NCBI GenBank assembly: GCA_964508045.1
Contig: CAZDSO010000001.1
Coordinates: forward strand, 746 to 64,745
DNA from: an uncultured Planctomycetia bacterium
Lineage (GTDB): Bacteria > Planctomycetota > JAKEIC01 > CAZDSO01
Length of the DNA: 64,000 nt
Direction: 5' to 3'
The position numbers and the translations under genes were made by a program. The notes beneath the pieces were generated by a model, which saw only the letters and a program-made list of their open reading frames with translations, was not told the DNA's origin and ran no database searches. How positions within the stretch are numbered: position 1 is the first letter of the stretch; the number at the start of each line of letters is the position of its first letter. This document shows positions 1,663 through 48,290 of the stretch, one piece after another.

Positions 1663-4600
1663 ATGCCTCGCCCCGAAGACCGGCTTGTCGGGATGATCCT
1701 CAACGGCCGCTACCGCGTGCAGGAGCGACTCGGCACCGGCGGCATGGCCTCCGTCTATCGCGTCCACGACGAGCTCGAAGACCGCGCCGCCTGCCTCAAG
1801 GTCCTCTTCGAGGGCGGGGACGACTCGGTCGAGCGGGAACTCCTCGTCCAGGAGTTCCGCACCCTCAAGGGACTCAAGCACCCCAACCTCGAGGAAGTCT
1901 ACGACTTCGGCCGCCTCGAGGGCGAAGACGCCCACTTCTTCTCCAATGAGCTCGTCGACGGCGCCGACCTCGGCGCCGCCTCGAAGGACCTCGACTTCGG
2001 GGCGCTCACCGAATGCCTCGTGCAGATCTGCCGCGCCCTCCAGTACATCCACTCTCGTGGGCTCGTCCATCTCGACATCAAGCCCGAGAACATCCTCGTC
2101 CGGCGAGGCCCCGAGGGAGATCCCCAGGTCAAGATCATCGACTTCGGCCTGGTCTCGAAACGGGACAATCCCCTCGGGGAGGAAATCCGCGGAACCCTCG
2201 CCTACGTGGCCCCGGAGATCCTCCGAGGCGAGGCGTCCGACCACCGCGCGGACCTCTATTCCCTCGGCGTCACCCTCTACCGCCTCCTCTCCGGCGGTGA
2301 GCACCCCTTCTCCGCGAAGTCGGACGTCGAGTCCGTCCTCCAGCGGTTCTCCCGGCAGGTCGACGCGCCCGTCTCCCCCCTCGGCGACATCCCCCCCTAT
2401 CTCGTCCGCGTCACGCTCCGGCTGCTCGAGGCCTCTCCGGAAAACCGGTATCCCGACGCCAACGCCATCATCGAGGACATCCGGCGCGCCACCCGAAAAC
2501 CCTACCCCCTCGAAACCGAGGAAAGCCGGGAAGGACGCGTCCTCTCCGGGCGCTTCGTCGGACGCGAACAGGAGATGGAAACCGTCACAACCCTCCTGGA
2601 CGAGGCCGCCGGCCGCGGCGCGCGGAAGCACGTCCTGATCACCGGCGAGGCCGGCGCCGGCAAGACCCGCTTCCTCCGCGAGATCGCCGTCCGCGCCCAG
2701 GTCGCGGGCCAGCGCGTATTCCGCGGAACCGCCCCGAAACGCGGCGCCGGCGCCTACGCCCACCTCGCCGGCGTCCTCACGGAACTCGTCCTCACCCTCG
2801 GCCGGGAACACCCCCGGGTCCGCGAACACGGCCCCCCCCTCGCCCGCATCCTGCCGGCACGCCTCGGGCTCGGCGATCCCCCGCCCCCGCTGGAAGGGCG
2901 CGCCGAGAGCATCCGCATCGCGGACGCGGCGAGCCGGCTGGTGCTCGGCTTCGCGCGCGGAAAACCGACGGTGGTCCTGCTGGACGATCTGGACCGCGCG
3001 GACCCCGGCACGGCGGACGCGCTGGCCTATCTGGTCCGGTCCACCCCCGCCTCCGGCGACGGCGCGCCGTCGCTGCTCGTCGTCGCGACGATCCGGGAAA
3101 CGGGTAGGAAGGAAGGCCCCGCTTCCCGCCTGTTCGGGGCGACCGAGACGAAGGCGGAATGGACGGAGGTCCCGCTCGGCCCCCTGGACGAGACGGCCGT
3201 GCAGGATCTCCTGGAGTCCATGTTCGGGGCCGGGGAGGTTCCGGATACGTTCCTCGAGCGGATCTTCGCGGCGAGCCGGGGCAACCCCCTTTTCCTGGAA
3301 GAGGCCGTCAGACTCCTCGCGGCGCGGGGGGATCTCCGCTGGACGGGCCGCCGGTGGGCATTTCCGGCGAGACCGGAGTCGGTGTCCATCCCGGAGAATC
3401 TCGAGGAGATCTTCGATCAATCGTTGCGGGACGTCGAGGAGGAGGACCGCGGGATCCTGGAAGCGATGGCGGTCTGGGGAAGGCCGGCCGGGGTGCGCGC
3501 GCTCCAGGCGACGCTGGGCGGGCGGTCTCTCGCGTCGGCCGCGGCCTCCCTGGCCAGGCTGCACGGCCGGGATCTGGCGGAACGAATGGACGAGGCGTCC
3601 GGGGCGCGCTGGCGGGTTCGGGGAAGCCTTTTCGAGGCGTACCTCTACGGCCGGATCCCGGCGGACGAGAAGAAGCGTCTCCACGGCCGGGCGGGGGCCT
3701 TTCTCGAGGAGCAGGGCGCGGAAGGCGCGCATGCGCTGGCGGAGGTGTCCCGTCATCTCCTCGCGGGAGGTCGGGGAGCGCAGGGCGTGGAGCGCGCGCT
3801 GGAGGCGGGCCGGAGGTTTCTGGACGTGGCGCAGTTCGACCGGGGCATCACGGTGTTGAAGCTGGCGGAAGAGGAAACGGGGGAGGCCGATGCTGCGACG
3901 CTCTCGGCGCTGCACTCGCTGGCGGGGAAGTGCCGGATGTACTCGGGGGACATGCCCGGCGCGCTGGAAGCGTTCCGGAAGGCGGATCGGCACCTGGAGA
4001 GGCAGGGGGCAAAAGCGCGAAAGGAGAGGCTCGAGATCCTCATCCACATCGGGGACATCCTGCGCGTGCTGGGCAGGGAAGAAGAAGGTTTCCGCTTCCT
4101 GGAACGGAGCGAGGCGATCGCGGCGGAGACGGGGGATCCGCTGGACGCGGCCCGGATCCGGCTGCACAAGGGAAACCGGCTCTGCGTCACGGGCCGGGTG
4201 GCCGAGGGGTTTCGGATCCTCGAGGAGGCGATCGGGGACCACGAGGCCCTCCTCGAACTCAACGAGGGCGCCGTCGCCAGCCTCCACCTGGCCAACCGCG
4301 AGGCGCGCCGCGGGGATCTCGCCAAGGCGGAGACCTGGCTCGCCGTCTCGGAACGGTACGCCCGCCGGCGGGGATCGAAGCACGGTCTTGTGATCGCCGA
4401 GCGGTACCGGGGCTACTGGGCCATGGAGGCGGGCCGGCTGGAGGAAGCGCGGAAACACCTCGAGGCGGCGCTCGCGCTCGTGCGCGAGATCGGCCACCGG
4501 AAGGAGGAAGGGTTCACGCTCGAGCCGCTGGTGAACGTGAACCTCGAGCTGGGGCGCTACGAGGAGGCGGAACGGCTGGTCCAGGAGGGGATGGCGACCT

Positions 4601-7600
4601 TCCAGGCGCTGGGGGACGAGGCCGCGGTCACGCGCCTGTACCAGAACCAGAGCGATTTCTGCCTCCTGCGGGGCGAGTTCGACGAGGCGATCGCCGTGCA
4701 GCATTCCGTCCTCCGGTTCTGGCAGGAGAAGGGGCATCCACTCTGGATCCCGGTCTCCGAGCTCAACACCGGCCAGGTCCACGTCGCGACCGGCCGCCCC
4801 GCCGAGGCCCTCCTCCATCTCCGGCAGGCGCTCACCCGTTTCCGGGACCTCGGGCAGTCGTCGTACATGCTGCATACCCGCCGCGTCCTCGGCGAACATT
4901 ACCTCGCGCGGGGCAAGTGGCGCGCGGCCCTTCGCATCACCGAGCGATGCCTGGAAAGCGGGGGCCCGGAGGGCAGCATCCCGGGCGAGGGTGTGGTCCG
5001 GTCGTTGCGGGCGATGGCCCTGGCGCACCTCGGACGGGTCAAGGAGGCGGAAGAGGAAGGAGAGCGGGCCTCCCGTCGCCTGGCGAAGGACGGGAACGTC
5101 CACATCGGCCTGGAGGAGGCGTTCCACAAGGCGCTGCGCGCCCGCGAGCGGGGACATTTCACGAGCGCGGCGGCCGGCCTCGCGCCGGTGCTCGAGACGG
5201 CGCGGGAGCGGGGGCGCCGGTCGCTCGAGCTGCGCGCCCTCGCGGTCCTGGGCGAGGTGCGGGTTCGTGAAGGATCCCTCGCGAAGGCCCTCCTATGCCT
5301 CAACCGCGCGACGGCCCTGAACCAGGGCGTGAAGGGCCGCCTCGAGGGCGTCGAGATCCGCCTCGCCCGCGCCGGTCTCTTCGAGCGGCTCGGCGACGAC
5401 GCCGAAGCACGGGCCGCCGCCCGCGAGGCGATCGCCCTCGCGGAATCCCTGAGAAATCCCGCCCTTGCCGGACGCGCCCGCCTCGCGGCGGGGCGCCTGG
5501 ATCGCCTGGCCAAGCGGGAAAACGCGCGGTCCCACCTCGAGGGGGCGCTCGCGTCCCTCCGGCGCGCCGGGGACCACCGAGGGCTCTGCGAGGTCCGGCT
5601 CGAGCTCGCCCGCCTCCTTCCCGCCGGCGAAGCCCGGCGGCAACGCGATGAGACGGAACGCCTCCTGGAAAACACCGGCACCCCCGATCTCGAGGCCCGG
5701 CTCGCCCTGCAACGGGCGGAATCCCGCGCCCGGGAAAGCGGTCCCGCGCCCGGGATCGAAGCCCTCCTCGAGAAGGCGCTCACCGCCGCGCGCGCGTCGG
5801 GAGACCGGGACCTGGTCCGGCGGGCGCACCATGCGCTGGCCTGCCTGCAGGCGGGGCGGGCGGAAAGCGGACGCCCCGCGCCGCACGCGACCGAGGCCCG
5901 GTCCATCGAGGAGGAGATGGCCTCGGACCTGCCGGAAGCACGGCTGGATGCCTTCCGGAAAACCAACGCCGGGATCCGCCGCGATATCGAGCGGATCTTC
6001 CGCCCCGAGGCGGGCGCGCCGCGAGAAAGCGCTCCCCCGGCGACGACTGCGGAAGCCTCGCCCCGCGAGGTCCATACCCTGCGGTCCATCCTCGAGGTCT
6101 GCAAGGAGTTCAACGCCGAGACGAATTTCCCGGATCTCCTCACCCGCATCCTGGACGACGCGATTTCCCTCTTCGGCGCCCGGCGCGGCTTCCTCCTGAT
6201 CGACACCGGGAAAGCGCTGGAGCCGCTGGTGTCCAGGAACTTCCGCGAGGAAGACGAGGCGGACCTCAGGATCAGCCGGACTCTCGCCCGCCGCGTCTTC
6301 GAGACCGGGCGGGGCGTCCATACCGGGAACGTGCTGGAGGAGGAAGCCTTCCTGGACAGCCACAGCGTGCACGCGCTGAAGTTGCAATCGGTCCTGTGCG
6401 CCCCGCTCAGAAGCGCCGGGGAGGCCGTCGGCGCCCTCTACCTGGACCAGCCGGCTCTCGAGGAGGCGTTCCGGGAAAAAGACCTGGATCTCCTCGGCGC
6501 CCTGGCCGACCTGGCCGGAATCGCGATCGAGAACGCCCGGCTGCTCGAAGGCCTTCAAGAGCGCGAGCGCGAGCTGGAGGAGAGGAATCTCGATCTGACG
6601 GAGGAAGTCCAGACGCGGATCCTCGAGGTCGAGGAGGTCCGGCGCACGCTGCACGATCGCGAACGGGAACTGAAAGGACGGGACCTCTACAAGGAAATCG
6701 TCGGGGAGAGCGAGGCCGTGCGACGGCTCTTCTCCCTCCTCGACCGCGTCAGCGCGTCCGCCCTTCCCGTGGTCCTCCAGGGCGAGACCGGAACCGGCAA
6801 GGAACTCGCGGCCCGGGCCGTTCACCAGGGCAGCGTCCGACGGGCCCGGCCGTTCGTGAGCGTCAACTGCGCGGCCCTCCCCGAGAACCTCCTGGAAAGC
6901 GAGCTCTTCGGCTACCGAAAGGGTGCCTTCACCGGCGCGACGAAGGACAGCTTGGGCCTGTTCGTCCACGCCGACGGCGGCTCGCTCTTCCTCGACGAGA
7001 TCGGCGACATGAGCCCCTCGCTCCAGGCCAAGCTCCTCCGCGTCCTCCAGGAAGGTGAGGTCCGGCCCCTGGGCGAAAAAACCTCCGTGCCCGTGGACGT
7101 GCGCATCCTCTGCGCGACCAACCGCGACCTCGCCGAGCGCGTCGAAGCGGGCGCCTTCCGCGAGGACCTCTTCTACCGACTGAACGTCCTCCGCGTCGAA
7201 CTCCCCTCCCTCAGGGAAAGACGGGAGGACATCCCCCTCCTGGCCTCCCATTTCCTCAAGGAGGTCCTCAAGAAGGAGAAGAGGAAGGAGAGGGACCTCA
7301 TCCTCTCCCAGTCCGCCCTGAAGGCCTTGAAGCGGCATCACTGGCCCGGAAACGTCCGCGAGCTGAAGAACACGATCGAAAGGGCCGCGGTCTTCGCCTC
7401 CTCCGACCGGATCACGGCCGAGGAGATCGAACTGGTGTTCCACCGGGAACCGGGGGAGGAGAAGGCCGAGGAGACGGATGCGCCCGGCGACTACCGCGAG
7501 GCCAAGACCGCCTTCGAGAAGGCCTACATCGAGAGGATGCTCCGGCGGCACGAGGGAAACGTGACCCGGGCGTCCGAGGAAGCCGACCTCCAGCGGGGTT

Positions 7601-7656
7601 ACTTCCACCGTCTGATGAAGAAATACGGCCTCAAGGCGGCCGATTTCAAGCAGTGA
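1663..7656 (+). CDS. Ser/Thr protein kinase / STAND (AAA_16-like) ATPase / TPR / GAF / sigma-54 enhancer-binding AAA+ / Fis-type HTH fusion protein
   Basis: 1,997-aa uninterrupted ORF. Kinase motifs: GTGGMASVY, HLDIKPENILV, DFGLV, YVAPE. P-loop ITGEAGAGKT with LLDDLD. Long helical-repeat middle. GAF-like block (LRSILEVCKEF...GFLLID). Sigma-54 core: [33 protein letters not shown]-terminal HTH NVTRASEEADLQRGYFHRLMKKYGL. Confidence 0.9.
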   Translation: MPRPEDRLVGMILNGRYRVQERLGTGGMASVYRVHDELEDRAACLKVLFEGGDDSVERELLVQEFRTLKGLKHPNLEEVYDFGRLEGEDAHFFSNELVDGADLGAASKDLDFGALTECLVQICRALQYIHSRGLVHLDIKPENILVRRGPEGDPQVKIIDFGLVSKRDNPLGEEIRGTLAYVAPEILRGEASDHRADLYSLGVTLYRLLSGGEHPFSAKSDVESVLQRFSRQVDAPVSPLGDIPPYLVRVTLRLLEASPENRYPDANAIIEDIRRATRKPYPLETEESREGRVLSGRFVGREQEMETVTTLLDEAAGRGARKHVLITGEAGAGKTRFLREIAVRAQVAGQRVFRGTAPKRGAGAYAHLAGVLTELVLTLGREHPRVREHGPPLARILPARLGLGDPPPPLEGRAESIRIADAASRLVLGFARGKPTVVLLDDLDRADPGTADALAYLVRSTPASGDGAPSLLVVATIRETGRKEGPASRLFGATETKAEWTEVPLGPLDETAVQDLLESMFGAGEVPDTFLERIFAASRGNPLFLEEAVRLLAARGDLRWTGRRWAFPARPESVSIPENLEEIFDQSLRDVEEEDRGILEAMAVWGRPAGVRALQATLGGRSLASAAASLARLHGRDLAERMDEASGARWRVRGSLFEAYLYGRIPADEKKRLHGRAGAFLEEQGAEGAHALAEVSRHLLAGGRGAQGVERALEAGRRFLDVAQFDRGITVLKLAEEETGEADAATLSALHSLAGKCRMYSGDMPGALEAFRKADRHLERQGAKARKERLEILIHIGDILRVLGREEEGFRFLERSEAIAAETGDPLDAARIRLHKGNRLCVTGRVAEGFRILEEAIGDHEALLELNEGAVASLHLANREARRGDLAKAETWLAVSERYARRRGSKHGLVIAERYRGYWAMEAGRLEEARKHLEAALALVREIGHRKEEGFTLEPLVNVNLELGRYEEAERLVQEGMATFQALGDEAAVTRLYQNQSDFCLLRGEFDEAIAVQHSVLRFWQEKGHPLWIPVSELNTGQVHVATGRPAEALLHLRQALTRFRDLGQSSYMLHTRRVLGEHYLARGKWRAALRITERCLESGGPEGSIPGEGVVRSLRAMALAHLGRVKEAEEEGERASRRLAKDGNVHIGLEEAFHKALRARERGHFTSAAAGLAPVLETARERGRRSLELRALAVLGEVRVREGSLAKALLCLNRATALNQGVKGRLEGVEIRLARAGLFERLGDDAEARAAAREAIALAESLRNPALAGRARLAAGRLDRLAKRENARSHLEGALASLRRAGDHRGLCEVRLELARLLPAGEARRQRDETERLLENTGTPDLEARLALQRAESRARESGPAPGIEALLEKALTAARASGDRDLVRRAHHALACLQAGRAESGRPAPHATEARSIEEEMASDLPEARLDAFRKTNAGIRRDIERIFRPEAGAPRESAPPATTAEASPREVHTLRSILEVCKEFNAETNFPDLLTRILDDAISLFGARRGFLLIDTGKALEPLVSRNFREEDEADLRISRTLARRVFETGRGVHTGNVLEEEAFLDSHSVHALKLQSVLCAPLRSAGEAVGALYLDQPALEEAFREKDLDLLGALADLAGIAIENARLLEGLQERERELEERNLDLTEEVQTRILEVEEVRRTLHDRERELKGRDLYKEIVGESEAVRRLFSLLDRVSASALPVVLQGETGTGKELAARAVHQGSVRRARPFVSVNCAALPENLLESELFGYRKGAFTGATKDSLGLFVHADGGSLFLDEIGDMSPSLQAKLLRVLQEGEVRPLGEKTSVPVDVRILCATNRDLAERVEAGAFREDLFYRLNVLRVELPSLRERREDIPLLASHFLKEVLKKEKRKERDLILSQSALKALKRHHWPGNVRELKNTIERAAVFASSDRITAEEIELVFHREPGEEKAEETDAPGDYREAKTAFEKAYIERMLRRHEGNVTRASEEADLQRGYFHRLMKKYGLKAADFKQ

Positions 7657-7866
7657 ACACAAAGATGTTCTCCCGAGGATCGGCGGAAATCCTTTTGATA
7701 ATTGAAGATAACACCTTCATCCCTCCTTCCCTCTTTTCTTGTAGCTGAAAAGCTCCATTTCCTCCCTTCTCCGGCGATCGTCGTTCCCGGGATCCACAGC
7801 GGAAAGAAATTCTTAACTTCAATCAAATAAATGGGTTGGGTTCTTTCGACGGGAAAACCGACGCTG

Positions 7867-7883
7867 TTGGCATGAATGGTGCT
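7867..7883 (+). promoter_or_regulatory. candidate sigma-54 (-24/-12) promoter
   Basis: TTGGCATGAATGGTGCT has GG(7869-70)-N10-GC(7881-82) spacing, matching TGGCAC-N5-TTGCW at most positions. It lies about 40 nt upstream of the ATG at 7923, with GGAGG at 7911-7915, and follows an AT-rich tract. Confidence 0.5.
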
Positions 7884-7922
7884 CCTTCATGAGCCGTCAC
7901 GAGCTTTGATGGAGGATCAACC

Positions 7923-9896
7923 ATGAACTCGAAACACGTTTGGATCGGCTCTCTCCTGGCCCTGTTCCTGTTCTTCACGGTCTCCTGCAAGAAGGAGGGG
8001 GTCGAGTTGACCTCCGTGACGGTCACGGGGGAGACGGAGGCGCTGGCGAAGGGGAAATCCCAGATCCTGGAAGCGGAAGGGACCTACAGCGACGGGACCA
8101 CGGCGACGATCGAGGTGAAGTGGAGCGTGTCGGATCCCTCGCTGGGCGAAATCCTCGCCGTTTCGGGGTCGCCGGAGAAGGCCGTTCTGCAAACGCTTGA
8201 GGAGGGGGAGTTGACGGTCCGGGCGGAAGCGAAGGAGGAGCCGGCGGTGAGCGCGTATTTCACCGTGACGGTGTTCGAGCCGGTGATGGAATCCATCGTG
8301 GTGTCGCCGGGATCTGCGAGCGTTCCCGAGGGCCTGACCGCGGCGTTTTCCGTGGAGGCCGAATACAGCGACGGGACGACGGCCCCGGTCTCCGTGGAAT
8401 GGTCCTCGAGCGACGAGGGGATCGCGACGGTGGACGGGACGGGCACCGTGACGACCGTTTCCCTGGGCGAGGCGACGATCACGGCGACGACCCTGGAAGA
8501 GCCGATCTTCTCGGACGCGGCGACGGTGACGGTGCTCGAGGCCGTTCCGGTGGGGCTTGCGGTCTCGCCCGCTTCCGCGTCGCTCGAGGAGGGCTGCACG
8601 CTGTCCTTCACGGCGTCGGTGAAGTACTCGGACGGATCCACGGGGGATCCGATCGAGGCGACGTGGACGAGCGCCGACGGGAACGTGGCGGTGATCGACG
8701 CCTCGGGCACGGCCACGGGCGTGGCGGCGGGCGTGGTGACCCTCACGGCCACGGCCGTCTCCGACGCGAGCCTTACGGGCGAGGCGGATCTGACGGTGGT
8801 GCCGGGTGTGGTGTCCATCTCGGTGACGCCGGGGACGGCGTCGGTGGTGCCGGGGAACACGCAGTCCTTCACGGCCACGGGGACGTACTCGGACCAGTCC
8901 ACGGCGCCCGTGGCGGTGACGTGGTCGAGCTCGAACACGACGGTGGCGACGATCGACGCCTCCGGCGTGGCGACGGGTCACACGAAGGGGACGGCGACGA
9001 TCACGGCGGCCTACCAGGCGAATCCGGGCGTGACGGGCTCCGCGACGCTGACGGTGGCCCCGTTCACCCGCATGTACATGAACAACAATCCCGACATCGA
9101 TTCGGTTCCCTTCACCGGCGGGTCCGGCCGGAACGACTACGTGGCTTCGACGCGCGTCCGCAGCATCCTGGTGAGCCGGGACAAGCAGACGCTCTACATG
9201 CTGGACGGGAACGGGGCGCTGTACGGCCTGGATCTCACCACGTATCAGCTGCAGACCCTGATCGCTTCGAGCTCGCCCCTGCTCCGCCAGGCCCTGAGCA
9301 TCGACGCGCAGGGGAACCTCTTCGCGGCGGGCTACAGCTACGTCAACAGCACGAACATGTACTCCGTCGAGAAGATCGACCCTTCCACCTGGACGGTCTC
9401 CACCTTCAGCCCCCTGGGGAACTCGACCTGCTATCACGACACCCTTCCCATGAACGGCGACGTCTACGTCGCGACCTGGGGCGGGATCGCAAGGGCGTCC
9501 TCGGGCGCGGCACCCACGAACGTCTTCACGAGCGGCATGAACGTGTTCACCAGCATCGCGGCCGACGCCAACGGGGACCTGTACACCGTCGAGTTCTGGA
9601 ACAAGGACGTGTGGAAACTCACGGACCTGAACAGCGACGGCAACTATTACGGCATGGGCGAATCCGGCGTATTCAAGAACTACGGAATGCAGTGGATCTG
9701 CGAGGTGGAGATGGACGCCGAGGACAGCCTCTACGTGGCCGAGCTGCAACAGGACGCCTCGAATCCCTCCCACGGCATCTGGAAGCTCCGGGATCTGAAC
9801 AACGACGGAGACGCCGTGGACGCCGGCGAGGGCTCGATCTGGTGCACGCGACCCTACCTCTCGGGCTGGGGCGGCGGCGGCATGAGCTTCAAGTAG
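7923..9896 (+). CDS. lipoprotein with four Big_2 (bacterial Ig-like) repeats and a C-terminal NHL/beta-propeller-like domain
   Basis: Lipobox signal MNSKHVWIGSLLALFLFFTVSC. Four ~85-aa repeats of the form V.P..A.v..G.t..ftA...YSDGtt..v...W.SS. The C-terminal half has repeated D.(Q/N)G(N/D)L(F/Y) blade-like motifs. Confidence 0.85.
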   Translation: MNSKHVWIGSLLALFLFFTVSCKKEGVELTSVTVTGETEALAKGKSQILEAEGTYSDGTTATIEVKWSVSDPSLGEILAVSGSPEKAVLQTLEEGELTVRAEAKEEPAVSAYFTVTVFEPVMESIVVSPGSASVPEGLTAAFSVEAEYSDGTTAPVSVEWSSSDEGIATVDGTGTVTTVSLGEATITATTLEEPIFSDAATVTVLEAVPVGLAVSPASASLEEGCTLSFTASVKYSDGSTGDPIEATWTSADGNVAVIDASGTATGVAAGVVTLTATAVSDASLTGEADLTVVPGVVSISVTPGTASVVPGNTQSFTATGTYSDQSTAPVAVTWSSSNTTVATIDASGVATGHTKGTATITAAYQANPGVTGSATLTVAPFTRMYMNNNPDIDSVPFTGGSGRNDYVASTRVRSILVSRDKQTLYMLDGNGALYGLDLTTYQLQTLIASSSPLLRQALSIDAQGNLFAAGYSYVNSTNMYSVEKIDPSTWTVSTFSPLGNSTCYHDTLPMNGDVYVATWGGIARASSGAAPTNVFTSGMNVFTSIAADANGDLYTVEFWNKDVWKLTDLNSDGNYYGMGESGVFKNYGMQWICEVEMDAEDSLYVAELQQDASNPSHGIWKLRDLNNDGDAVDAGEGSIWCTRPYLSGWGGGGMSFK

Positions 9897-9906
9897 GAGA
9901 GACGCC

Positions 9907-11064
9907 ATGAAGACCCTCTGCATCATCCTGATCCTCCTCGCGACCGGTCTTCTGGCTTCCGTCATCCTCCCGGTCCCCCTCGGGGACCGGGAGGAGACGG
10001 TTTCCGTACCGGCCTCGATGACAACCGACCCGGGCGACGCCGCGGAACCGTTCGGACGGGATCCCGGCGCCGCCGGGGCCCGCGCGGCCGCGGAGGAAAC
10101 TCTCGGTGCCGCGCCTCGGCGAGGGGAAGGCACCCGCGCTTCCGGTACGGCGCGCGCTCGCCTCCCGGAGCCGAGCGCCGGCGAGAAGGCCCCGGACGCG
10201 GTCCCCGGCCTTCTCGAAGACCTGGAAGCCGCCTTCGTGGCGGGACAATCCGCCGAGATGAAGGCCCTCCACGCCCGCATCCGGGCCCTGGGCGAGAAGG
10301 CCCTCGGTGACCTCGCTTCCTGCATCCGCTCCGCGAAGGACGCGACGACCGTCCTGCTGGCCATGGACGCCCTGGCGGGTCTTCGCGCGGCGCATCCCGG
10401 CTCGTCCGCGATCGAGGCCGCCTACGAGACCGCCGTCTTTCCGCGCGCGAAGGCGATCCTCGAATCCGTCGAGGATCCCGCGCTGCGCGCCCACGCCGCC
10501 TTTCACCTCGCCGCGTGCCGCCTCCCCGCGGGGGTGGACGTCCTTCTGGAGCGCGTGCGCCAGGACCGCGAGGAGCGGGTCCGGGCCGCCTGTCTGGACG
10601 CCCTGGTCCGCGAGAAGGAGCGCGGGGCCACGCCCGCGTTGGTGAACATGCTGGAGCTGGGCCTGCCGCACGAGGAGAGGTCCCGGCTCGGCATCGCCCG
10701 GGCGTCTCTGGCTCTGCTGGACGAATCGTCCCGCGCCCGGGGTCGCCGGCGCATCCACGCCGCGATGAAGGACGATCTGGAAGCGATCCTGCAGGACCCC
10801 GCGCCGCAGAACGCCGCGAGACGCTACGCCGCCTTCCACCTCCTTCTGCAGACGGCGCCCGGGGGCGACGCCCGGACGCTTGTCGAGGCGGTGCGGCGCG
10901 AGACGACCCCCGTCGTGTTCGCCGGCGTGGTCGATACGCTGGTGGACCGGAAGGAGACGGAGGATCTCGCGCCGGTGCTCGAAGAGATCGCCTGCGATGT
11001 CTCCCGGCCCGAGGGCGTGAAGCGGCTCGCGCGCGGGGCGCTTTCGAGGATCCGGGGCCGTTGA
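9907..11064 (+). CDS. secreted/anchored HEAT-like repeat protein
   Basis: N-terminal hydrophobic segment MKTLCIILILLATGLLASVIL. Repeated helical units contain D...(V/L)R..A...L. The gene starts 10 nt after the upstream gene. Confidence 0.7.
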   Translation: MKTLCIILILLATGLLASVILPVPLGDREETVSVPASMTTDPGDAAEPFGRDPGAAGARAAAEETLGAAPRRGEGTRASGTARARLPEPSAGEKAPDAVPGLLEDLEAAFVAGQSAEMKALHARIRALGEKALGDLASCIRSAKDATTVLLAMDALAGLRAAHPGSSAIEAAYETAVFPRAKAILESVEDPALRAHAAFHLAACRLPAGVDVLLERVRQDREERVRAACLDALVREKERGATPALVNMLELGLPHEERSRLGIARASLALLDESSRARGRRRIHAAMKDDLEAILQDPAPQNAARRYAAFHLLLQTAPGGDARTLVEAVRRETTPVVFAGVVDTLVDRKETEDLAPVLEEIACDVSRPEGVKRLARGALSRIRGR

Positions 11065-11123
11065 CGTCTTCGCGCGCCCTGTCGTGGCGCCGGGTCTTCG
11101 GTCCGGGCAAAGCCGCAGAAAGG

Positions 11124-12308
11124 ATGGAAACCATGATGCTTCGATGGGCGTGCCTGGCAGGGACGGCTCTGGTCGTCACGATTGTTGCCGGCCCGGCGCT
11201 CGGGGACGTCGCCCCGAATCCTCTGGCCGGTGGGACGAGTCCCCACGTCCACGGGGACCCCACGTCGGTGGCGATGACGTGGGAGAAGGTGGAGATGGTC
11301 GTGACGGGGGACAAGGTGCTCGTCACCGCCGTCTTCGGTCTCACGAACACGGGCGACGCCGAAACCCTCCAGGTGGGGTTCCCCACGTTCCGGCGTTACG
11401 CCTTGAGGGATTTCACCGCGGAAGTCGACGGAAAGAGCGTTCCCGTCACGCGGAACAAGGGCTGGCATCTCTGGAGCATGGATTTCGCGGACAAGGAGGC
11501 CCGCACCGTCAAGGTTCGCTACTGGAACGAACCCGTCGAGGATTCCCGGGCCAATCAGCGGCTGGACGAGATCCCCTGCAAGGATCCGGAGGGATTCGAG
11601 GAGACGTTCCGGCGTTTCAAGGCCCACTACGTGCTGTACACGGGCGCGGGATGGAGGGGGCCCATCGGGACGGCGGAGATCGCCGTCCGGTTCGAGGGCA
11701 TGAAGGCGGACGAAGCCCTGAGAGCGTACAGCTACGGGGACGAGGCGACCCTCGACGAAGACGGCCTGACGTGGAAATTCCGCGACCTGGAGCCCGTGCA
11801 CGGCGGAGCGTACGATCACCTCACGGTGAAATGGTGCGCGAGGCGCTTCGAGGAGGAGAAGGAGGTGTTTCTCGATCTGGCCGGGAACAAACCGGACGAT
11901 ACGATGGTCCGCGTTCATCTCGCCAGGCTCCTTCGGTCGAGAAGGGATTTCCAGGGGGCGATGTCCCACTACCACCGCCTGATCGAAGGCGTGCTGTCGA
12001 GGCCCCTGCGGGACGGGGACCTCGTGCTCGTGGAACGAGGCCCCTGGGAGGAAATCGACTGGGTTCTCGAGGCCTGCGGGGCCATGGCGGAGATGTCGGA
12101 CCGGGTGCGGATCGAGAACCGCGTGCTGGAAACATGGCTCCAGCAGTGCATCGACGTCACGGGACGCATGGCGGGGGGAAAGGCCGTGGGACACTACAGG
12201 AAGGGATACTTCAAGCGAACGCTCGTCATGATACGGCCCACAGTGAGGAAGGTCCTCGAACGTTGCCGGAAAACGCTCGCAGGACTGGATCAACGCGGGG
12301 CCAAGTAG
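11124..12308 (+). CDS. secreted hypothetical protein (N-terminal beta-sandwich reminiscent of DUF4424, helical C-terminus)
   Basis: The ATG at 11124 gives signal peptide METMMLRWACLAGTALVVTIVAGPALG. The 203 codons upstream in the track ORF (10515-) are R/G/P-rich and overlap the HEAT gene. The family assignment is a weak motif resemblance only. Confidence 0.65.
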   Translation: METMMLRWACLAGTALVVTIVAGPALGDVAPNPLAGGTSPHVHGDPTSVAMTWEKVEMVVTGDKVLVTAVFGLTNTGDAETLQVGFPTFRRYALRDFTAEVDGKSVPVTRNKGWHLWSMDFADKEARTVKVRYWNEPVEDSRANQRLDEIPCKDPEGFEETFRRFKAHYVLYTGAGWRGPIGTAEIAVRFEGMKADEALRAYSYGDEATLDEDGLTWKFRDLEPVHGGAYDHLTVKWCARRFEEEKEVFLDLAGNKPDDTMVRVHLARLLRSRRDFQGAMSHYHRLIEGVLSRPLRDGDLVLVERGPWEEIDWVLEACGAMAEMSDRVRIENRVLETWLQQCIDVTGRMAGGKAVGHYRKGYFKRTLVMIRPTVRKVLERCRKTLAGLDQRGAK

Positions 12309-12406
12309 ATGGATGTTCCCCCGGCCATTGTGCGCCGTCTCGGGTTCCGGTTCGCTGGGGAGAAGGAAAGCCACCACGGAGAACGCCGGATAGAAAGGCC
12401 AGCTTC

Positions 12407-12925
12407 ATGAAGAGGTTCCTGCTGCTTTTCGTCATCGCCTGCGCGTCCTGCGCGTCCGCGCCCGCCGAGCGCGACGTTCGCGAGGGGGACGTCGAGGTCA
12501 TCGCCGCCTGGATCCTGGGCCGGGACACCGGCGGGGTCTTCGAGCATCCCTTCGCCGACAGCCGGTTTCTCTCGAAGGCGGAAGAACCGCTTCTCTATTC
12601 CGACGTCCGCGTCGGGAACCTGCCGACGCCCTTGTCCCAGAGGCCCTACGAGTTCGTCCTGGGGCGCATGCAGGCGATCCGGAGTCTGGAAGAGGACGGC
12701 GGGAATCCGGATCCCGCGGTCCTGATCACCACCTCGGTGGAACGCCTGCCCGAGGAGGGGGAACACGCCGACATCCAGATCATGCGATGGCGGGGGAAAC
12801 CGGGGGACCGGTACTACTACGTGGAAGTGGGCATCGGCACCATGGCCTGGCACTGGATCAAGGTCGTCATGCGCGGAACGCCGGGCGACAGGAAGGCCAT
12901 CGTCCTTCCGCTGGCGCTGTCCTGA
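12407..12925 (+). CDS. small lipoprotein, unknown function
   Basis: The ATG at 12407 gives MKRFLLLFVIACASC (lipobox). The upstream part of track ORF 11084- overlaps the preceding gene out of frame. Confidence 0.65.
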   Translation: MKRFLLLFVIACASCASAPAERDVREGDVEVIAAWILGRDTGGVFEHPFADSRFLSKAEEPLLYSDVRVGNLPTPLSQRPYEFVLGRMQAIRSLEEDGGNPDPAVLITTSVERLPEEGEHADIQIMRWRGKPGDRYYYVEVGIGTMAWHWIKVVMRGTPGDRKAIVLPLALS

Positions 12926-12937
12926 TCCCTCGTCGCC

Positions 12938-15580
12938 CTACTTCGTCGCCGGCTCGACCGAGGCCAGGCGGAAGCCGTAGACGTAGGAGGTGGTGAAGGA
13001 GGCGTCGCCGAAGCGGGAGGCGCACCGCGTGGCCGTGCTGAAGTTCACCCAGGATCCTCCCCGGATCGAGCGCACCCCCGCCAGCGCGTCCGATTCCGTC
13101 TCGCACCATTCCCGCACGCCTCCCGCCATGTCCCTGACGCCGTAGGGGGAGGCGTCGACCGGGTAGGCGCCCACGGCCTCGGGGGCGGGGGGACCCGGCC
13201 GCGACCGCGAGTTCTTGCAGTAGGTGGGATCGAACTTGTCGCCCCAGGGATAGACGCGGCCGTCCACGCCCCGGGCGGCCTTCTCCCACTGGGCCTCGGT
13301 GGGCATGGCGTAGGCCCGGCCGTCGCGCTCGGACCGCCAGACGCAATAGGCCTTGGCCATGTGCCAGCTCACCGCGATCACCGGCATCTCGGGAATCCAG
13401 GCGAAGGGGGTCTTGGTCCCGGGCCCGGGAAGGGCAAAGACGCCCTCGTCGTTCCGCGCCCACAGCGGCCGGCCCGTGCCCGGCTCCACCGGCACGGCGG
13501 ACAATGCCCGGTCCGGAGGCAGGCTGTTGAGATACGCCAGGTACGCGCGGCAGGTCACGGGGAAGACGGCGATGAAGTAGTCGGGCAGGACCTGGGCCGA
13601 CCGGGGCTTGGGGGCCAGGGCGTGGGGGTCTCCGCCGCTGACGAAGGGGCCGGCGGGAACGTGGACGAAGCCCTCGCCGATCTCGTCGTCGGTGAACATC
13701 CGCCCCTCCACGAGGCGGTCCTCGCCGCGGCGGACCAGCAGGGGAAGGCGCGTGCGGGCCTTCCCCGGGGCGTCCAGCTCGAGGAGGTAGGAGCCCATGG
13801 GGATGGTCCTGCGCCCCCCCTCGGACGCGGGAAAGGACTCGATCCTCTCCGGGCGGAGGATGCGGCCGCGCTCGCGGTACCGCGAGAGCAGGACGGTCGC
13901 GCCGGGAGGGTCCGTCTCCAGCGTCAGCGTCCCGTCGCCCTTCAGCGCCTCGTCCAGCACGCCGTCGTTGAAGAACTTGGCGGTGGCCAAAAAGTAGTTC
14001 ACGCCGGCCTGGTCGCCCTTCTCCTCCGCCTCGAGAAAACGGCCCCAGTAGAGCTGGGCCAGGACCTCGCGCGCCTCGCGGTTGTCGGACTCGAATTCCA
14101 GCGCGGAGACGAACTTGTTGACGGCGTCGGCGAAACGCCTCCCCTTCAGCACGGCCATGCGCTCCAGCTGGTCCTCGATGACCCACAGTTCCTTCTTCTC
14201 CTCCACCGGTTCCCACCCCTTGAACTTCTTGGCGGTGGCTTCCAGCGTCTTTTCGTAGCGGCGGACCACCTCCCGCATGGCGAAGTACCTCTCGGCCAGC
14301 TTCTTCCCCTCCTCGACGGCCTCCCGGGCCTCCTCGCGGCGGCGCAGGCGCTCCTTCGCGCCTTCGGCGTACCGCTGGATGTCGTCGTGGAGCGCGCGCA
14401 CCGAGGCGTAGCGGTCCTTCTTCTTCTTCTGCAGCGCCTTGAGGCAGATCCGGTCCAGCTCCGGATGGATCCGGCGCGTCTCGGTCGCGCGTCTCGAAGG
14501 CGGCTTCGGCTCCTCCCGGACCACCTTGTCCAGCAGCGCGCCAACGTCGCTTCCGTCGAAGGGAAGGCGAAACGTCAGGATCTCGTAGAGGATCGTCCCC
14601 AGCGAATAGATGTCGCTACGCTCGTCGATTTCCCCCAGCTTCCCCTCGGCCTGCTCGGGGGACATGTAGATGGGCGTGCCCAGGATCGTCCCTTCCGCCG
14701 TGATGCGCGAATCCAGGGGGGACCCGCTTCCCTCGCCGGCGGAGCGGATCTCGTCCTGGTCCCGGTACTTCGCCAGGCCCCAGTCCATGATCAGGACCTC
14801 ACCGAAGTCCCCGATCATGATGTTCTCGGGCTTCAGGTCCCGGTGGACGATGCCCTTGTCGTGCGCGTAGGCGATCCCCATGCAGACCGCCTGGAAGATC
14901 GCCAGGAAGCGCCACCGCGAAAACCGCTTCTCGACGGATTCGTCCCCCGACCGGAGGGCGTCGAGGACCTCCGCCAGCGAGCGGCCCCGGACCAGCCGCA
15001 TGGAGAAGTAGGGTAGGTTTTCGCCGAGCTCCCCCATGTCATAGACGGGCACGATGTTCGGATGCTGGAGCTGCCCCGACAGGCGCGCTTCCCTGAGGAA
15101 GCGCTCCCGCCGGCTCGACCGCTCCTTCCCGGGCAGGGCGACCTTCAAGGCCAGGTGGCGCTGGAGGTTGTGGTCGAAGGCGTTGTACACCACCCCGATG
15201 CCGCCGCGTCCCACCTCGTCCAGGATCGTGTACCGCTCGTCGGGCAGCTTGCAGGGGGTCATGAGGTCCGCGTCGTCCATCTCCGGCGCGGGGGATGCCG
15301 CGGGCTGCAGTTCCATCGTCTCGGATTCCTCTTTCTTCGGGATCTTCATCGAAAGCGGCTCCTGGCCCCGGCGCCGGCGGCCCTCCTCGATCACTTCCAG
15401 CGCCTCCTTCTCCGCCTCCGTGATGAGGCCCTTCTCGTACAGCGCCTCGCCGAGGTCGGACGCCCCGACGTCCTTCACGAAGGGCTCGAGATCGTCCCGC
15501 GTGACCAGCTGGTTCCGGAGCGCCGCGAGCCCGAGACGCAGATCCCGCATGCTGTCGTCGTCCTGCTTCATCCCCGACAA
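12938..15580 (-). CDS. Ser/Thr protein kinase with C-terminal FGE-sulfatase (SUMF1-like) domain
   Basis: Kinase motifs: LALKV, HRDLKPENIMI, DWGLAK (DFG variant), SPEQ. C-terminal FGE-type motifs: EAQWEKAARG and IRGGSWVNF. The N-terminus has RLG..L....L-type helical repeats. Confidence 0.9.
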   Translation of the reverse strand: MSGMKQDDDSMRDLRLGLAALRNQLVTRDDLEPFVKDVGASDLGEALYEKGLITEAEKEALEVIEEGRRRRGQEPLSMKIPKKEESETMELQPAASPAPEMDDADLMTPCKLPDERYTILDEVGRGGIGVVYNAFDHNLQRHLALKVALPGKERSSRRERFLREARLSGQLQHPNIVPVYDMGELGENLPYFSMRLVRGRSLAEVLDALRSGDESVEKRFSRWRFLAIFQAVCMGIAYAHDKGIVHRDLKPENIMIGDFGEVLIMDWGLAKYRDQDEIRSAGEGSGSPLDSRITAEGTILGTPIYMSPEQAEGKLGEIDERSDIYSLGTILYEILTFRLPFDGSDVGALLDKVVREEPKPPSRRATETRRIHPELDRICLKALQKKKKDRYASVRALHDDIQRYAEGAKERLRRREEAREAVEEGKKLAERYFAMREVVRRYEKTLEATAKKFKGWEPVEEKKELWVIEDQLERMAVLKGRRFADAVNKFVSALEFESDNREAREVLAQLYWGRFLEAEEKGDQAGVNYFLATAKFFNDGVLDEALKGDGTLTLETDPPGATVLLSRYRERGRILRPERIESFPASEGGRRTIPMGSYLLELDAPGKARTRLPLLVRRGEDRLVEGRMFTDDEIGEGFVHVPAGPFVSGGDPHALAPKPRSAQVLPDYFIAVFPVTCRAYLAYLNSLPPDRALSAVPVEPGTGRPLWARNDEGVFALPGPGTKTPFAWIPEMPVIAVSWHMAKAYCVWRSERDGRAYAMPTEAQWEKAARGVDGRVYPWGDKFDPTYCKNSRSRPGPPAPEAVGAYPVDASPYGVRDMAGGVREWCETESDALAGVRSIRGGSWVNFSTATRCASRFGDASFTTSYVYGFRLASVEPATK

Positions 15581-31230: not shown

Positions 31231-32049
31231 CTACATGCCGCCGACGCTCATCCAGTGGCCCAGTCCCCCCGAGAGAAGCGGGAGGAGACCGAGGCCCAGG
31301 ACGAGAAGCGCCGCGATCTTGTCGTACTTGTCCCCGTGGAAGAAGAAGAGGATCAGCCCCGCCAACATCATCAAGATGCCGAGGTGGGCCGCGTAGAAGC
31401 GCGTCATCGCCCAGTTGCCGACGTCGTCCTTCGCGTCCGCGAGCGATCTCCCCGCCTCGGCCAGGTCGGTTTGATGCTCATGGACCCACCGGTTCCATTC
31501 CTCCTTCTCCTCCAGGTAGTCCTTGAACGCCTCGCTCTCGGTGTACTTCTCCACAGCCTCCTGGTATTCCTCGTTGAACTCCTCCTGTTCCTCGTTCCGC
31601 TCCTTCGCATCGAGCTTGACGGATTGCTTCTTGTAGGGCTCGGGGGGCGGAACGGGTTTGTTGCTCTGGCCCTGGTAGTACGTCTGAAGCGCGTCGTACT
31701 TCAGCTTCCAATGGCCGTGGCTCTTGTGCGCGCAGGTGGCCAGGAAAAACAGGGAGATGCCCGCCACGAAGAGGATCCGGCCGATCTTGAGATAATCGGC
31801 GGGCTCCTTCGGCTTCGCCGGAGCCTTCTTCTCCTTCGCCTTCGGCTCGGCCTTCGCGGAAGCCTTCTCCTCTTTCTTCGCTTCCGGAGGTTTCGCGGCC
31901 TTTTCCTCCTCTTCTTCCTCTTCCTCGTCTTCTTCCTCCTCGTCCTCCTCCTCCTCCTCCTCCTCCTCCTCCTCTTCCCATTCCTCTTCCTCTTCCTCGG
32001 GTGCCTCGGAGCTCCTGCCCCGTTCCGGATCGCTCAACGGATCTCTCAT
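31231..32049 (-). CDS. membrane protein with extreme poly-Glu/Asp N-terminal tract
   Basis: The ATG at 32049 has an AAGGAG RBS. The sequence begins MRDPLSDPERGRSSEAPEEEEEEWEEEEEEEEEEEDEEEEDEEEEEEEEK, followed by a K/A/E/P-rich linker. One TM segment is ILFVAGISLFFLATCA and two C-terminal TM segments are present (HLGILMMLAGLILFFF, ALLVLGLGLLPLL). Confidence 0.65.
   Translation of the reverse strand: MRDPLSDPERGRSSEAPEEEEEEWEEEEEEEEEEEDEEEEDEEEEEEEEKAAKPPEAKKEEKASAKAEPKAKEKKAPAKPKEPADYLKIGRILFVAGISLFFLATCAHKSHGHWKLKYDALQTYYQGQSNKPVPPPEPYKKQSVKLDAKERNEEQEEFNEEYQEAVEKYTESEAFKDYLEEKEEWNRWVHEHQTDLAEAGRSLADAKDDVGNWAMTRFYAAHLGILMMLAGLILFFFHGDKYDKIAALLVLGLGLLPLLSGGLGHWMSVGGM
31944..31973. repeat. trinucleotide simple-sequence tract (CCT)n, encoding poly-Glu on the minus strand
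   Basis: Uninterrupted cctcctcctcctcctcctcctcctcctc run inside a longer CTC/TTC-rich segment (about 31860-31990). Confidence 0.8.
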
Positions 32050-32136
32050 GTCTCCACTCCTTTCCTTGCCCTCGAAAGGTCCAACGATTCCCGGAAACGC
32101 CAGTCCGCATCCTACCCGAGAGAGCAGGAAGGGCGC

Positions 32137-32169
32137 AAAAAAAAATTCCACCGTCAAAGACGGTGGAAT
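32137..32169 (-). terminator. strong intrinsic terminator (minus strand)
   Basis: Perfect 11-bp stem attccaccgtc/gacggtggaat with a 3-nt loop. On the minus strand it is followed by eight U (plus-strand A run 32137-32144). It lies 387 nt downstream of the smpB stop. Confidence 0.7.
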
Positions 32170-32445
32170 GGCGGGTTGATGGGTCGGACATGGATCCCCC
32201 CCATTGACCCATGACCGTCGCCGGCCACAAGCCGGTTCCCACCAACGCCTCTTTACGAAAGATGCAAAGCCCGTACCATTCCCACGATTCCCCGAAAACG
32301 GCCCAGGCTCCGTTTCTCCATGGGAAGCAAGGACGTTTCGGCGCCGGCGCGATCCCGAATCCGGCCCGTGCACAGACACTAGCTATCACAAGTTAACAAA
32401 ATCGGGGGAAACCGGATACTTGCTTACCTGCCAGGGAACGGCGCC

Positions 32446-32555: not shown

Positions 32556-33065
32556 TCAGCGCTTTTTCCGGCGGCGGGCCAGCTCCCGGTCCACGTCGCG
32601 CCGGGCGTCGCGCCGCTTCACGTCTTCCCGCCGGTCGAACAGTTTCTTCCCCCGGGCCAGGGCGATCTGCGTCTTCACGATCCCCCGGTGGTTGAAGTAG
32701 AGGGAAAGCGGGACGAGGGTGTACCCGCGCTCCACCAGCGCCCGCTGGATGCGGCGCAGTTCCCGCTTGTGCACCAGCAGCTTGCGGGGACGCTTGGGCT
32801 CGTGCGTGGCGTACCCCCGCATCTCGTACGCCGGGATGTCCATGTTGAACAGCCACAGCTCGCCCCCGCGCATGCGGCCGAAGGCCTCCATGATGGACGC
32901 CTTGCCGCCGCGCAGGGCTTTCACTTCCGTGCCGAGCAGCGCGACGCCGGCCTCGAGGCGGTCTTCGAGGTGATAGAGATGCGCGGCCTTGCGGTTCCCG
33001 GCGACAAGGCGGTATCCGGAAGGTTCCTCCGATCCGCCGGCGGTCTTCTTCGTCTTGCCTGCCAT
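32556..33065 (-). CDS. smpB: SsrA-binding protein
   Basis: GNRKAAHLYHLEDRLEAGVALLGTEVKALR...LLVHKRELRRI...ALARGKKLFDRRED. The start was assigned to MAGKTKK (ATG at 33065). Confidence 0.92.
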   Translation of the reverse strand: MAGKTKKTAGGSEEPSGYRLVAGNRKAAHLYHLEDRLEAGVALLGTEVKALRGGKASIMEAFGRMRGGELWLFNMDIPAYEMRGYATHEPKRPRKLLVHKRELRRIQRALVERGYTLVPLSLYFNHRGIVKTQIALARGKKLFDRREDVKRRDARRDVDRELARRRKKR

Positions 33066-33124
33066 GGTACGGACCCTGATACACGACGCGGCGCCGGGGC
33101 GCAAGGATCAGCCGGAGGGCGCGT

Positions 33125-48271: not shown

Positions 48272-48290
48272 TTGGGCATGCTTGTTGCTT
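48272..48290 (+). promoter_or_regulatory. candidate sigma-54 (-24/-12) promoter, divergent from the XylR-type activator gene
   Basis: TTGGGCATGCTTGTTGCTT has GG(48275-76)-N10-GC(48287-88), with GGCA at -24 and a perfect TTGCT at -12. It sits in an AT-rich intergenic region 136 nt from the activator start codon. Confidence 0.5.

Follow-up and report, generated by a model that had tools for sequence, protein, structure and literature searches.

Genes for bacterial enhancer-binding proteins (bEBPs) that lie next to the sigma-54 promoters they activate are a textbook arrangement, as in norR-norVW, pspF-pspA, zraSR-zraP and prpR-prpB. Adjacency of an enhancer-binding protein (EBP) gene is an accepted predictor of target promoters, and Planctomycetota are among the phyla with reported sigma-54 regulons (PMC12316311). 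The same predictor was applied in silico to the planctomycete Pirellula sp. strain 1, yielding EBP/promoter pairs, as a statement in PMC12316311 that cites Studholme & Dixon 2004 has it. Sigma-54 has also been tied to the cell and bacterial exterior, and envelope control is a described theme (PMC3162934). Here we describe a locus of this type in 64,000 nucleotides of DNA from an uncultured Planctomycetia bacterium (GenBank assembly GCA_964508045.1, contig CAZDSO010000001.1, positions 746 to 64,745 of the forward strand), a stretch that we call the window. The subject is a sigma-54-type promoter element that stands between a giant gene for a kinase-fused EBP, G0, and a gene for a predicted lipoprotein, G1:

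1663-7656, + strand: G0, a kinase-EBP of 1997 residues and the presumed activator of the promoter (Pfam and motif reading)
7868-7883, + strand: sigma-54-type -24/-12 promoter element, TGGCATG-AATG-GTGCT (motif, matrix score, conservation)
7894-7922, + strand: predicted 5' untranslated region of ~29 nt, with its start placed near 7894, 12 nt past the C of GC, and a Shine-Dalgarno sequence, GGAGG, at 7911-7915
7923-9896, + strand: G1, a lipoprotein of 657 residues that combines four Ig-like Big_2 domains with a six-bladed beta-propeller at its C-terminus (Pfam Big_2 x4, 149 bits)

We favour an explanation in which this element would be a functional sigma-54 (RpoN) promoter for G1 that is activated by G0, a combination that we hold to be fairly probable. 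The same promoter may well also drive the three closely spaced genes with export signals that follow G1.

The element has the expected form. The initial annotation had singled out TTGGCATGAATGGTGCT for its GG-N10-GC spacing, and both its position (7867-7883) and the exact spacing were borne out (GG at 7869-7870, GC at 7881-7882). Within it, TGGCATGAATGGTGCT (7868-7883) agrees with the consensus at 10 of 12 positions (TGGCAC-N5-TTGCW-like context). The element begins 211 nt 3' of the end of G0, in a gap (7657-7922) that is indeed 266 nt long and AT-rich, with 47.7% GC against 67.5% for the whole window. Between the element and the ATG of G1 at 7923 lie 39 nt (previously given as about 40 nt) that include the GGAGG. 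Standard -24/-12 numbering, applied to the window sequence, gives the predicted start at 7894. Rfam returned no match in the gap, and its sole match in the window at the gathering threshold is a tRNA.

We scored the window with a position weight matrix built from 178 aligned published sigma-54 promoters (Table S2, parts 1 and 4, of PMC12316311). Training scores have a 10th percentile of 12.9 bits and a median of 17.8 bits, and the matrix is biased to Desulfovibrio and E. coli sites. The G1 promoter site scores 15.8 bits (at 7866, + strand), which is within the range of known promoters, above background, and third among 128,000 window positions. Only two sites score higher, at 19.2 bits (48272, + strand) and 18.6 bits (32280, - strand), and the fourth reaches 11.5 bits. 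Three window sites at or above 15.5 bits compare with 0.16 expected under a first-order Markov model, and none of 300 null sequences contained three. All three sites fall in the intergenic ~8.4% of the window, as judged from an approximate gene map. The matrix scoring that the initial annotation had proposed thus sets the site apart from background.

The promoter is conserved upstream of G1 relatives. We compared DNA for two full-length relatives, P0004 in locus L011 (from a Planctomycetota metagenome-assembled genome) and P0012 in locus L007, which are 37-39% identical to G1 (39% for P0012). L011 carries TGGCACGATCCCTGCT (17.7 bits) and L007 carries TGGCATGGCCCGTGCT (15.5 bits), the latter with TGGCATG-N4-GTGCT, the same -24/-12 blocks as the window. 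Each is the top-scoring site in its own 11-22 kb locus. The distance from element to ATG is 39 nt in the window, 36 nt in L007 and 38 nt in L011. Multiple alignment of the upstream regions yields GGCA.G and TGC as the only invariant blocks, and the remaining upstream DNA is unalignable. A comparable, correctly oriented site would arise by chance with a probability per intergenic region of 0.003 in the window, 0.002 in L011 and 0.025 in L007. Because the site is conserved in related loci, a chance origin is very unlikely.

A fourth, weaker site, CGGCACGTGAAGTGCA (9.4 bits), is located in L043, 190 nt past the stop codon of an EBP related to G0 (P0124), at the contig end. All four related sites have G or C at -15, in contrast to the T of known sigma-54 promoters. 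More distant kinase-EBP loci (L040, L044 and L045) contain no site of at least 15 bits in 16-18 kb, indicating that the matrix does not fire beside just any EBP gene.

Searches for further G1 relatives added little. A single-protein scan of genome contigs with G1 recovered no relatives, and a profile search for orthologs recovered one more, the truncated P0241. Scans with an alignment of the propeller domain returned 28 loci that we set aside, as they encode distant propeller-only proteins (from Planctomycetota and Brocadiaceae) without Big_2 and are not orthologs; the exception, L012, is the L007 contig again. Upstream of the propeller-only genes we found only matches to 9-10 of 12 consensus positions, ~290-310 nt away or within the open reading frame (ORF; L013/L014, L035), none of them credible. 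We also considered a promoter of the extracytoplasmic function (ECF) type and dropped it, as inspection of the window, L011 and L007 revealed no GGAAC/CGTC-like pattern common to these loci.

Gene order suggests a link between G0 and this promoter. In L011, 350 nt lie between the gene for a full-length G0 ortholog, which shares 41% identity over 2017 aligned positions, and the G1 ortholog downstream of it. In a third organism (JGI 3300042731), 283 nt separate the gene for the EBP ortholog P0122 (1997 residues, 48% identical to G0) from one for a 668-residue Big_2 protein, behind which comes a gene for a 370-residue HEAT_2 protein. The order of activator, gap and Big_2 gene is common to the three organisms, so the gene order that the initial annotation had suggested comparing recurs, for its EBP-gap-Big_2/propeller part, in two other genomes. 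This conserved adjacency is the main argument that G0 acts on the G1 promoter.

G0 has the domains that such a role would call for. Pfam assigns it, in order, Pkinase (139 bits), AAA_16 (86 bits, residues 297-468), TPR (TPR_MalT, 53 bits; TPR_12, 85 bits), GAF (GAF_2, 61 bits), Sigma54_activat (243 bits, residues 1679-1845) and AAA_lid_14 (85 bits) domains, and a putative Fis-type helix-turn-helix (HTH) segment comes last. The PF00158 AAA+ domain, with its Walker A and B motifs and GAFTGA loop, identifies G0 as a bEBP. The AAA_16 P-loop nucleoside triphosphatase (NTPase) followed by a TPR arm identifies it as a signal transduction ATPase with numerous domains (STAND). Its translation includes two Walker A motifs, GEAGAGKT (STAND) and GETGTGKE (AAA+), and LFLDEIGDM. 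The GAFTGA motif is encoded at 6922 and is kept in the EBPs of L011, L040 (P0123), L043, L044 and L045. Kinase motifs are complete (GTGGMAS, ACLKVL with its K, HLDIKPEN, DFG and APE) and kept in the L011 ortholog; judged by these motifs, the kinase is predicted to be catalytically intact and, from its HLD motif, is of the non-RD type. A C-terminal segment, GNVTRA...RGYFHRLMKKYG, is kept in four G0 orthologs or paralogs, and the helices presumed to recognise DNA (RGYFHRLMKKY and variants) resemble one another across the EBPs without being identical.

Upstream of G0, a gene of the QTMAN_N and glycosyltransferase family 1 type (tRNA-queuosine mannosyltransferase-like, 209 bits) occupies 173-1312 on the - strand, divergent from G0 over a 350-nt gap. 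This gap has no sigma-54-like site (best score 8.8 bits, at 1437).

These features suggest how the promoter may work. Sigma-54 RNA polymerase would bind GG (-24) and GC (-12) in a closed complex unable to open unaided. G0 would bind through its C-terminal Fis-type HTH within the AT-rich ~210 nt upstream, form an AAA+ ring and touch sigma-54 by its GAFTGA loops, and ATP hydrolysis would then open the promoter for a start near 7894. The output of G0 is presumably gated by its N-terminal modules, namely the non-RD Ser/Thr kinase, the STAND NTPase with MalT-like TPR and the GAF domain.

Several observations weigh against this reading, and they touch the element, the activator, its binding site and the downstream genes. 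At the level of the element, the window site carries G at -15, where 69% of training sites have T, and T at -21. Conservation rests on three promoter regions, two of which are probably from one genome. A search for RpoN-box peptides in the 64-kb window and in 615 kb from related loci found none; we assume the presence of sigma-54 because EBPs are present and on the basis of phylum-level literature. Matrix enrichment, the intergenic position of the sites and two EBPs in the window suggest that the organism very probably uses sigma-54. Finally, read-through from G0 into G1 is possible because no terminator separates the two genes. On the other side, a scan of the + strand between 7400 and 13400 found neither a sigma-70-like promoter nor a terminator-like site, a result that we count in favour of the reading.

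The motif match could also be fortuitous or non-functional. G1 transcripts would then arise by read-through of G0 or at an unrecognised promoter of the sigma-70 or ECF type within the gap. Compatible with this are the negative searches for rpoN and for a terminator between G0 and G1, the poor coverage of Planctomycetota promoters by the sigma-70 scan, and the loose consensus, which is not enriched in the window (6 matches with at most 2 mismatches against 5.5 expected; 4 against 2.9 for at least 10 of 12 positions with GG and GC fixed). Yet the joint chance of such sites in three G1-family upstream regions is ~1.5e-7 (0.003 x 0.002 x 0.025), the sites keep a constant 36-39 nt from the ATG, no columns other than those of the -24 and -12 blocks are conserved, and the matrix does find enrichment, at intergenic positions. 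We therefore regard a fortuitous match as quite improbable. From motif, score and conservation, we hold it very probable that G1 has a genuine sigma-54 promoter at 7868-7883.

The identity of the activator is less constrained, and one further EBP gene of the window has to be considered:

46451-48136, - strand: second EBP, XylR_N-V4R-Sigma54_activat-HTH_8, with a GSFTGA loop, divergent from the site at 48272

P0012 in L007, a probable paralog of G1, has a near-identical promoter and no EBP within 10 kb, and a kinase-EBP paralogous to G0, P0123, is encoded in L040. Together these make the pairing of activators with promoters ambiguous. L007 and L040 were found in the same samples as the window contig, and their tetranucleotide profiles are as close to that of the window (r = 0.98-0.99) as different parts of the window are to one another, so both loci are probably from the window's genome. 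If so, this genome encodes a pair of kinase-EBPs and a pair of Big_2/propeller lipoproteins, the latter behind promoters whose -24/-12 blocks are nearly identical.

The promoter may thus be real and respond to another EBP, whether P0123, the XylR-type protein or one whose gene lies elsewhere; the main targets of G0 would then be other genes, or it would act in trans on both G1 and its paralog. The P0012 promoter, the probable shared genome, the second EBP in the window and the absence of a common enhancer sequence (see below) are all in keeping with this possibility. Against it, the order of EBP and G1 is kept in three organisms at only 41-48% EBP identity, which is hard to explain unless the two are functionally linked, and the XylR-type EBP gene stands divergent to a sigma-54-like site of its own, at 48272. 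We consider activation by another EBP rather unlikely, and adjacency leads us to lean, if modestly, towards G0 as the activator of the G1 promoter. Of the activator-promoter-target module put forward in the initial annotation, the promoter and the EBP-G1 adjacency are supported, whereas conservation of the four-gene target set is not.

The related loci differ in their other genes. P0012 is encoded at 10001-12064 of L007, with its promoter at 9949-9964 and divergent trmD and rplS as upstream neighbours. Behind P0123 (5042-10537 of L040; 1831 residues, 41% identical to G0) we found a riboflavin-synthase-like gene but no sigma-54 site. In L011, the G1 ortholog is followed not by HEAT, G3 or G4 genes (see below) but by an ECF-type sigma-70 gene (9980-11159; Sigma70_r2/r4_2), whose product, truncated where the contig ends, has 393 residues or more and a long C-terminal extension. 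The genes upstream of the EBP in the P0122 contig encode a protein with an FHA domain, a further HEAT_2 protein and a Pkinase protein of 1481 residues. HEAT-repeat and Ser/Thr kinase genes thus surround the module both in this contig and in the window (G2 and G5).

The gap between G0 and G1 contains several candidates for an upstream activating sequence (UAS):

7657-7867, + strand: AT-rich upstream region (46% GC), the expected location of an enhancer (UAS)
7697-7711: candidate UAS, GATAA-N5-GATAA (present in the sequence)
7733-7752: candidate UAS, perfect inverted repeat CTTTTC-N8-GAAAAG (inverted-repeat listing)
7804-7814: candidate UAS, palindrome AAGAAATTCTT (present in the sequence)

The palindrome and the GATAA repeat had been proposed as binding or bending sites in the initial annotation. 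Both are present in the window, and neither has a counterpart in the related promoter regions. Two points here belong with those that weigh against the favoured reading. First, no k-mer, local alignment or inverted-repeat half-site rises above chance across the window, L011, L043 and L007; a AAATGGGTTG-like k-mer is, by our own estimate, about as frequent as chance predicts. Second, the HTH_8 match of G0 scores 21.1 bits, under the Pfam cutoff of 22 (E = 2.6e-4).

A perfect 6-N8-6 inverted repeat does occur 5' of the promoter in the window (7733-7752), in L011 (7246-7265) and in L007 (9857-9876). Only 0.07% of shuffles (p ~0.0007) gave the three regions a spacer in common, although the pattern was noticed post hoc. 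Because the sequences and distances differ, we treat this geometry as a lead and not as a finding: it may reflect an enhancer arrangement that persisted while the half-sites diverged, or be a coincidence picked out after the fact.

The genes downstream of G1 are as follows:

9907-11064, + strand: G2, a HEAT-repeat protein of 385 residues whose N-terminus is hydrophobic (HEAT_2, 33.6 bits)
11124 (or 11133)-12308, + strand: G3, a protein of 394 (or 391) residues with a signal-peptide-like N-terminus and no reliable family (Pfam)
12407-12925, + strand: G4, a small protein of 172 residues (MKRFLLLFVIACASC...) that resembles a lipoprotein and matches no family
12938-15580, - strand: G5, a convergent gene whose product joins a Ser/Thr kinase to an FGE-sulfatase domain (Pkinase, 144 bits; FGE-sulfatase, 116 bits)

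Most of what the initial annotation had claimed for these genes agrees with our results. G1 to G4 are co-directional and separated by gaps of 10, 59 and 98 nt. Public gene calls for the source contig, a 169-kb JGI metagenome contig, bear out this map, except that G3 begins there at 11133 and the second gap widens to 68 nt. The four Big_2 domains of G1 are recognised by Pfam, and its C-terminal 278 residues are modelled as a six-bladed beta-propeller (AlphaFold2 pLDDT 81, pTM 0.84) whose best PDB matches in Foldseek are Kelch, YWTD, Drp35, TolB and NHL-type propellers (TM 0.6-0.7). The Cys that closes the N-terminal hydrophobic stretch is aligned in G1 and P0012, and P0004 has its own signal-peptide Cys (LLVSC) within an N-terminal extension. 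The HEAT repeats of G2 and the kinase and FGE-sulfatase domains of G5 were likewise recovered.

Two labels fared less well. G3 had been called DUF4424-like; its match to DUF4424 (PF14415) scores 21.5 bits against a cutoff of 27 and covers 33 residues of a 306-position profile, and the label should be dropped. No relatives of G3 were found in NCBIfam or the PDB. G4, described as a small lipoprotein, does have a Cys after its hydrophobic N-terminus, and it matched no family or relative in Pfam, NCBIfam or the PDB. G5 bounds the block, and the data here do not support its membership in the module.

How far transcription from the G1 promoter extends is a separate question. The translations of all four genes open with a hydrophobic export-type segment, ending in Cys in G1 and G4. 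The short gaps and the blank terminator and sigma-70 scan of 7400-13400 fit co-transcription of G1-G4, and G2, which begins 10 nt past G1, is probably co-transcribed with it. As a further point against the wider reading, G2-G4 are not kept as a unit: G1 stands alone in L011 and L007, G1 and G2 occur together in the P0122 contig, and G3 and G4 are in none of these loci. The four-gene part of the expected gene order is thus not conserved.

The promoter may accordingly serve G1 only, or G1 and G2, with G3 and G4 forming a separate lineage-specific unit that has its own, unrecognised promoter in the 59- or 98-nt gap. Besides their absence from the related loci, G3 and G4 are without relatives in the databases searched and lie behind gaps that exceed the 10 nt between G1 and G2. 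Such a division is harder to reconcile with the blank scan of 7400-13400 and with four co-directional genes that all carry export signals. We rate it as a real but lesser possibility, and a four-gene operon of G1-G4, which is possible and not conserved, as about evenly balanced.

The two higher-scoring sigma-54-like sites of the window are also of note. The top match, TTGGGCATGCTTGTTGCTT (48272-48290, + strand, 19.2 bits), lies in a 581-nt gap and points away from the XylR-type EBP. On its 3' side there are only a 16-codon ORF (MKYKGALVAARGSGHN) and T-runs. With no annotated gene and no Rfam match there, the site may drive a sigma-54-dependent small RNA or peptide. The second-best match, AATGGTACGGGCTTTGCAT (32280-32262, - strand, 18.6 bits), is located downstream of smpB (32556-33104, - strand). 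About 115 nt past it, a strong hairpin precedes a run of nine T, which would delimit a transcript at about 32252-32136 on the - strand. The 123-nt stretch folds at -63.2 kcal/mol (z = -4.5). ARAGORN does not identify the 32252-32136 stretch as a transfer-messenger RNA, and Rfam gives only a weak wcaG match (E = 0.09). The stretch overlaps the 5' extension of a long ORF (31231-32379) without a Pfam match. We consider 32252-32136 a candidate sigma-54-dependent small RNA.

To our knowledge, what is known of promoters in Planctomycetota is almost wholly computational. The locus adds comparative evidence for sigma-54 control of cell-surface proteins in this phylum. Its layout, an EBP beside a target, is ordinary; the activator itself is what departs from the textbook. 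Proteins with the order Pkinase-AAA_16-TPR-GAF-Sigma54_activat, as in G0, are nevertheless common in databases, where they number 251 at E <= 1e-50. Source names among the 120 family matches listed include Planctomycetes/Planctomycetota, Myxococcales/Polyangia, Thermoanaerobaculia, Nitrospirae, Calditrichaeota and Methylomirabilota. Most members are named 'sigma 54-interacting transcriptional regulator', and some of the matches listed end in histidine-kinase or GGDEF domains. We found no study of this kinase- and STAND-fused EBP family in the literature searched. An unstudied class of activator thereby gains a defined, conserved candidate for a target promoter, which could serve as a reporter for its reconstitution.

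A bolder proposal, which we put forward as speculative, is that G0 and its orthologs may form a distinct class of single-protein signalling device. In this class a kinase and a STAND switch would directly gate a sigma-54 AAA+ activator, each with a private downstream promoter for a surface lipoprotein of immunoglobulin-like and propeller domains. If this were true, the same-genome pairs (G0-G1 and P0123-P0012) would be insulated parallel circuits that share the 6-N8-6 geometry and differ in their half-sites. The downstream Big_2 gene is kept only by the closest G0 orthologs (41-48% identical), whereas the EBPs of L040, L044 and L045 have other neighbours and no adjacent site.

Compared with known EBP-adjacent promoters, the window locus is similar in its GG-N10-GC element, a score within their range, a neighbouring activator gene, AT-rich upstream DNA and a cell-envelope target. 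It differs from the known pairs in that G0 lies upstream of its target in the same direction instead of divergently, and in having no recognisable enhancer repeat. G0 resembles GAF-type bEBPs (NifA, NorR and FhlA) in that its GAF domain directly precedes the AAA+ domain with GAFTGA, followed by a putative Fis-type HTH. In NorR, for instance, the GAF domain represses the AAA+ domain (PMC2941729). Unlike these three proteins, G0 has ~1480 extra N-terminal residues with a Ser/Thr kinase, a STAND NTPase and TPR. Over its N-terminal two thirds, G0 is instead similar to STAND regulators of the PknK/MalT type (Pkinase, AAA_16 and TPR_MalT), and some database relatives of G0 are labelled 'serine/threonine-protein kinase PknK'. 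The likeness to PknK/MalT may extend to function. G0 departs from PknK and MalT at its output, which is a sigma-54 AAA+ activator in place of a LuxR-type HTH.

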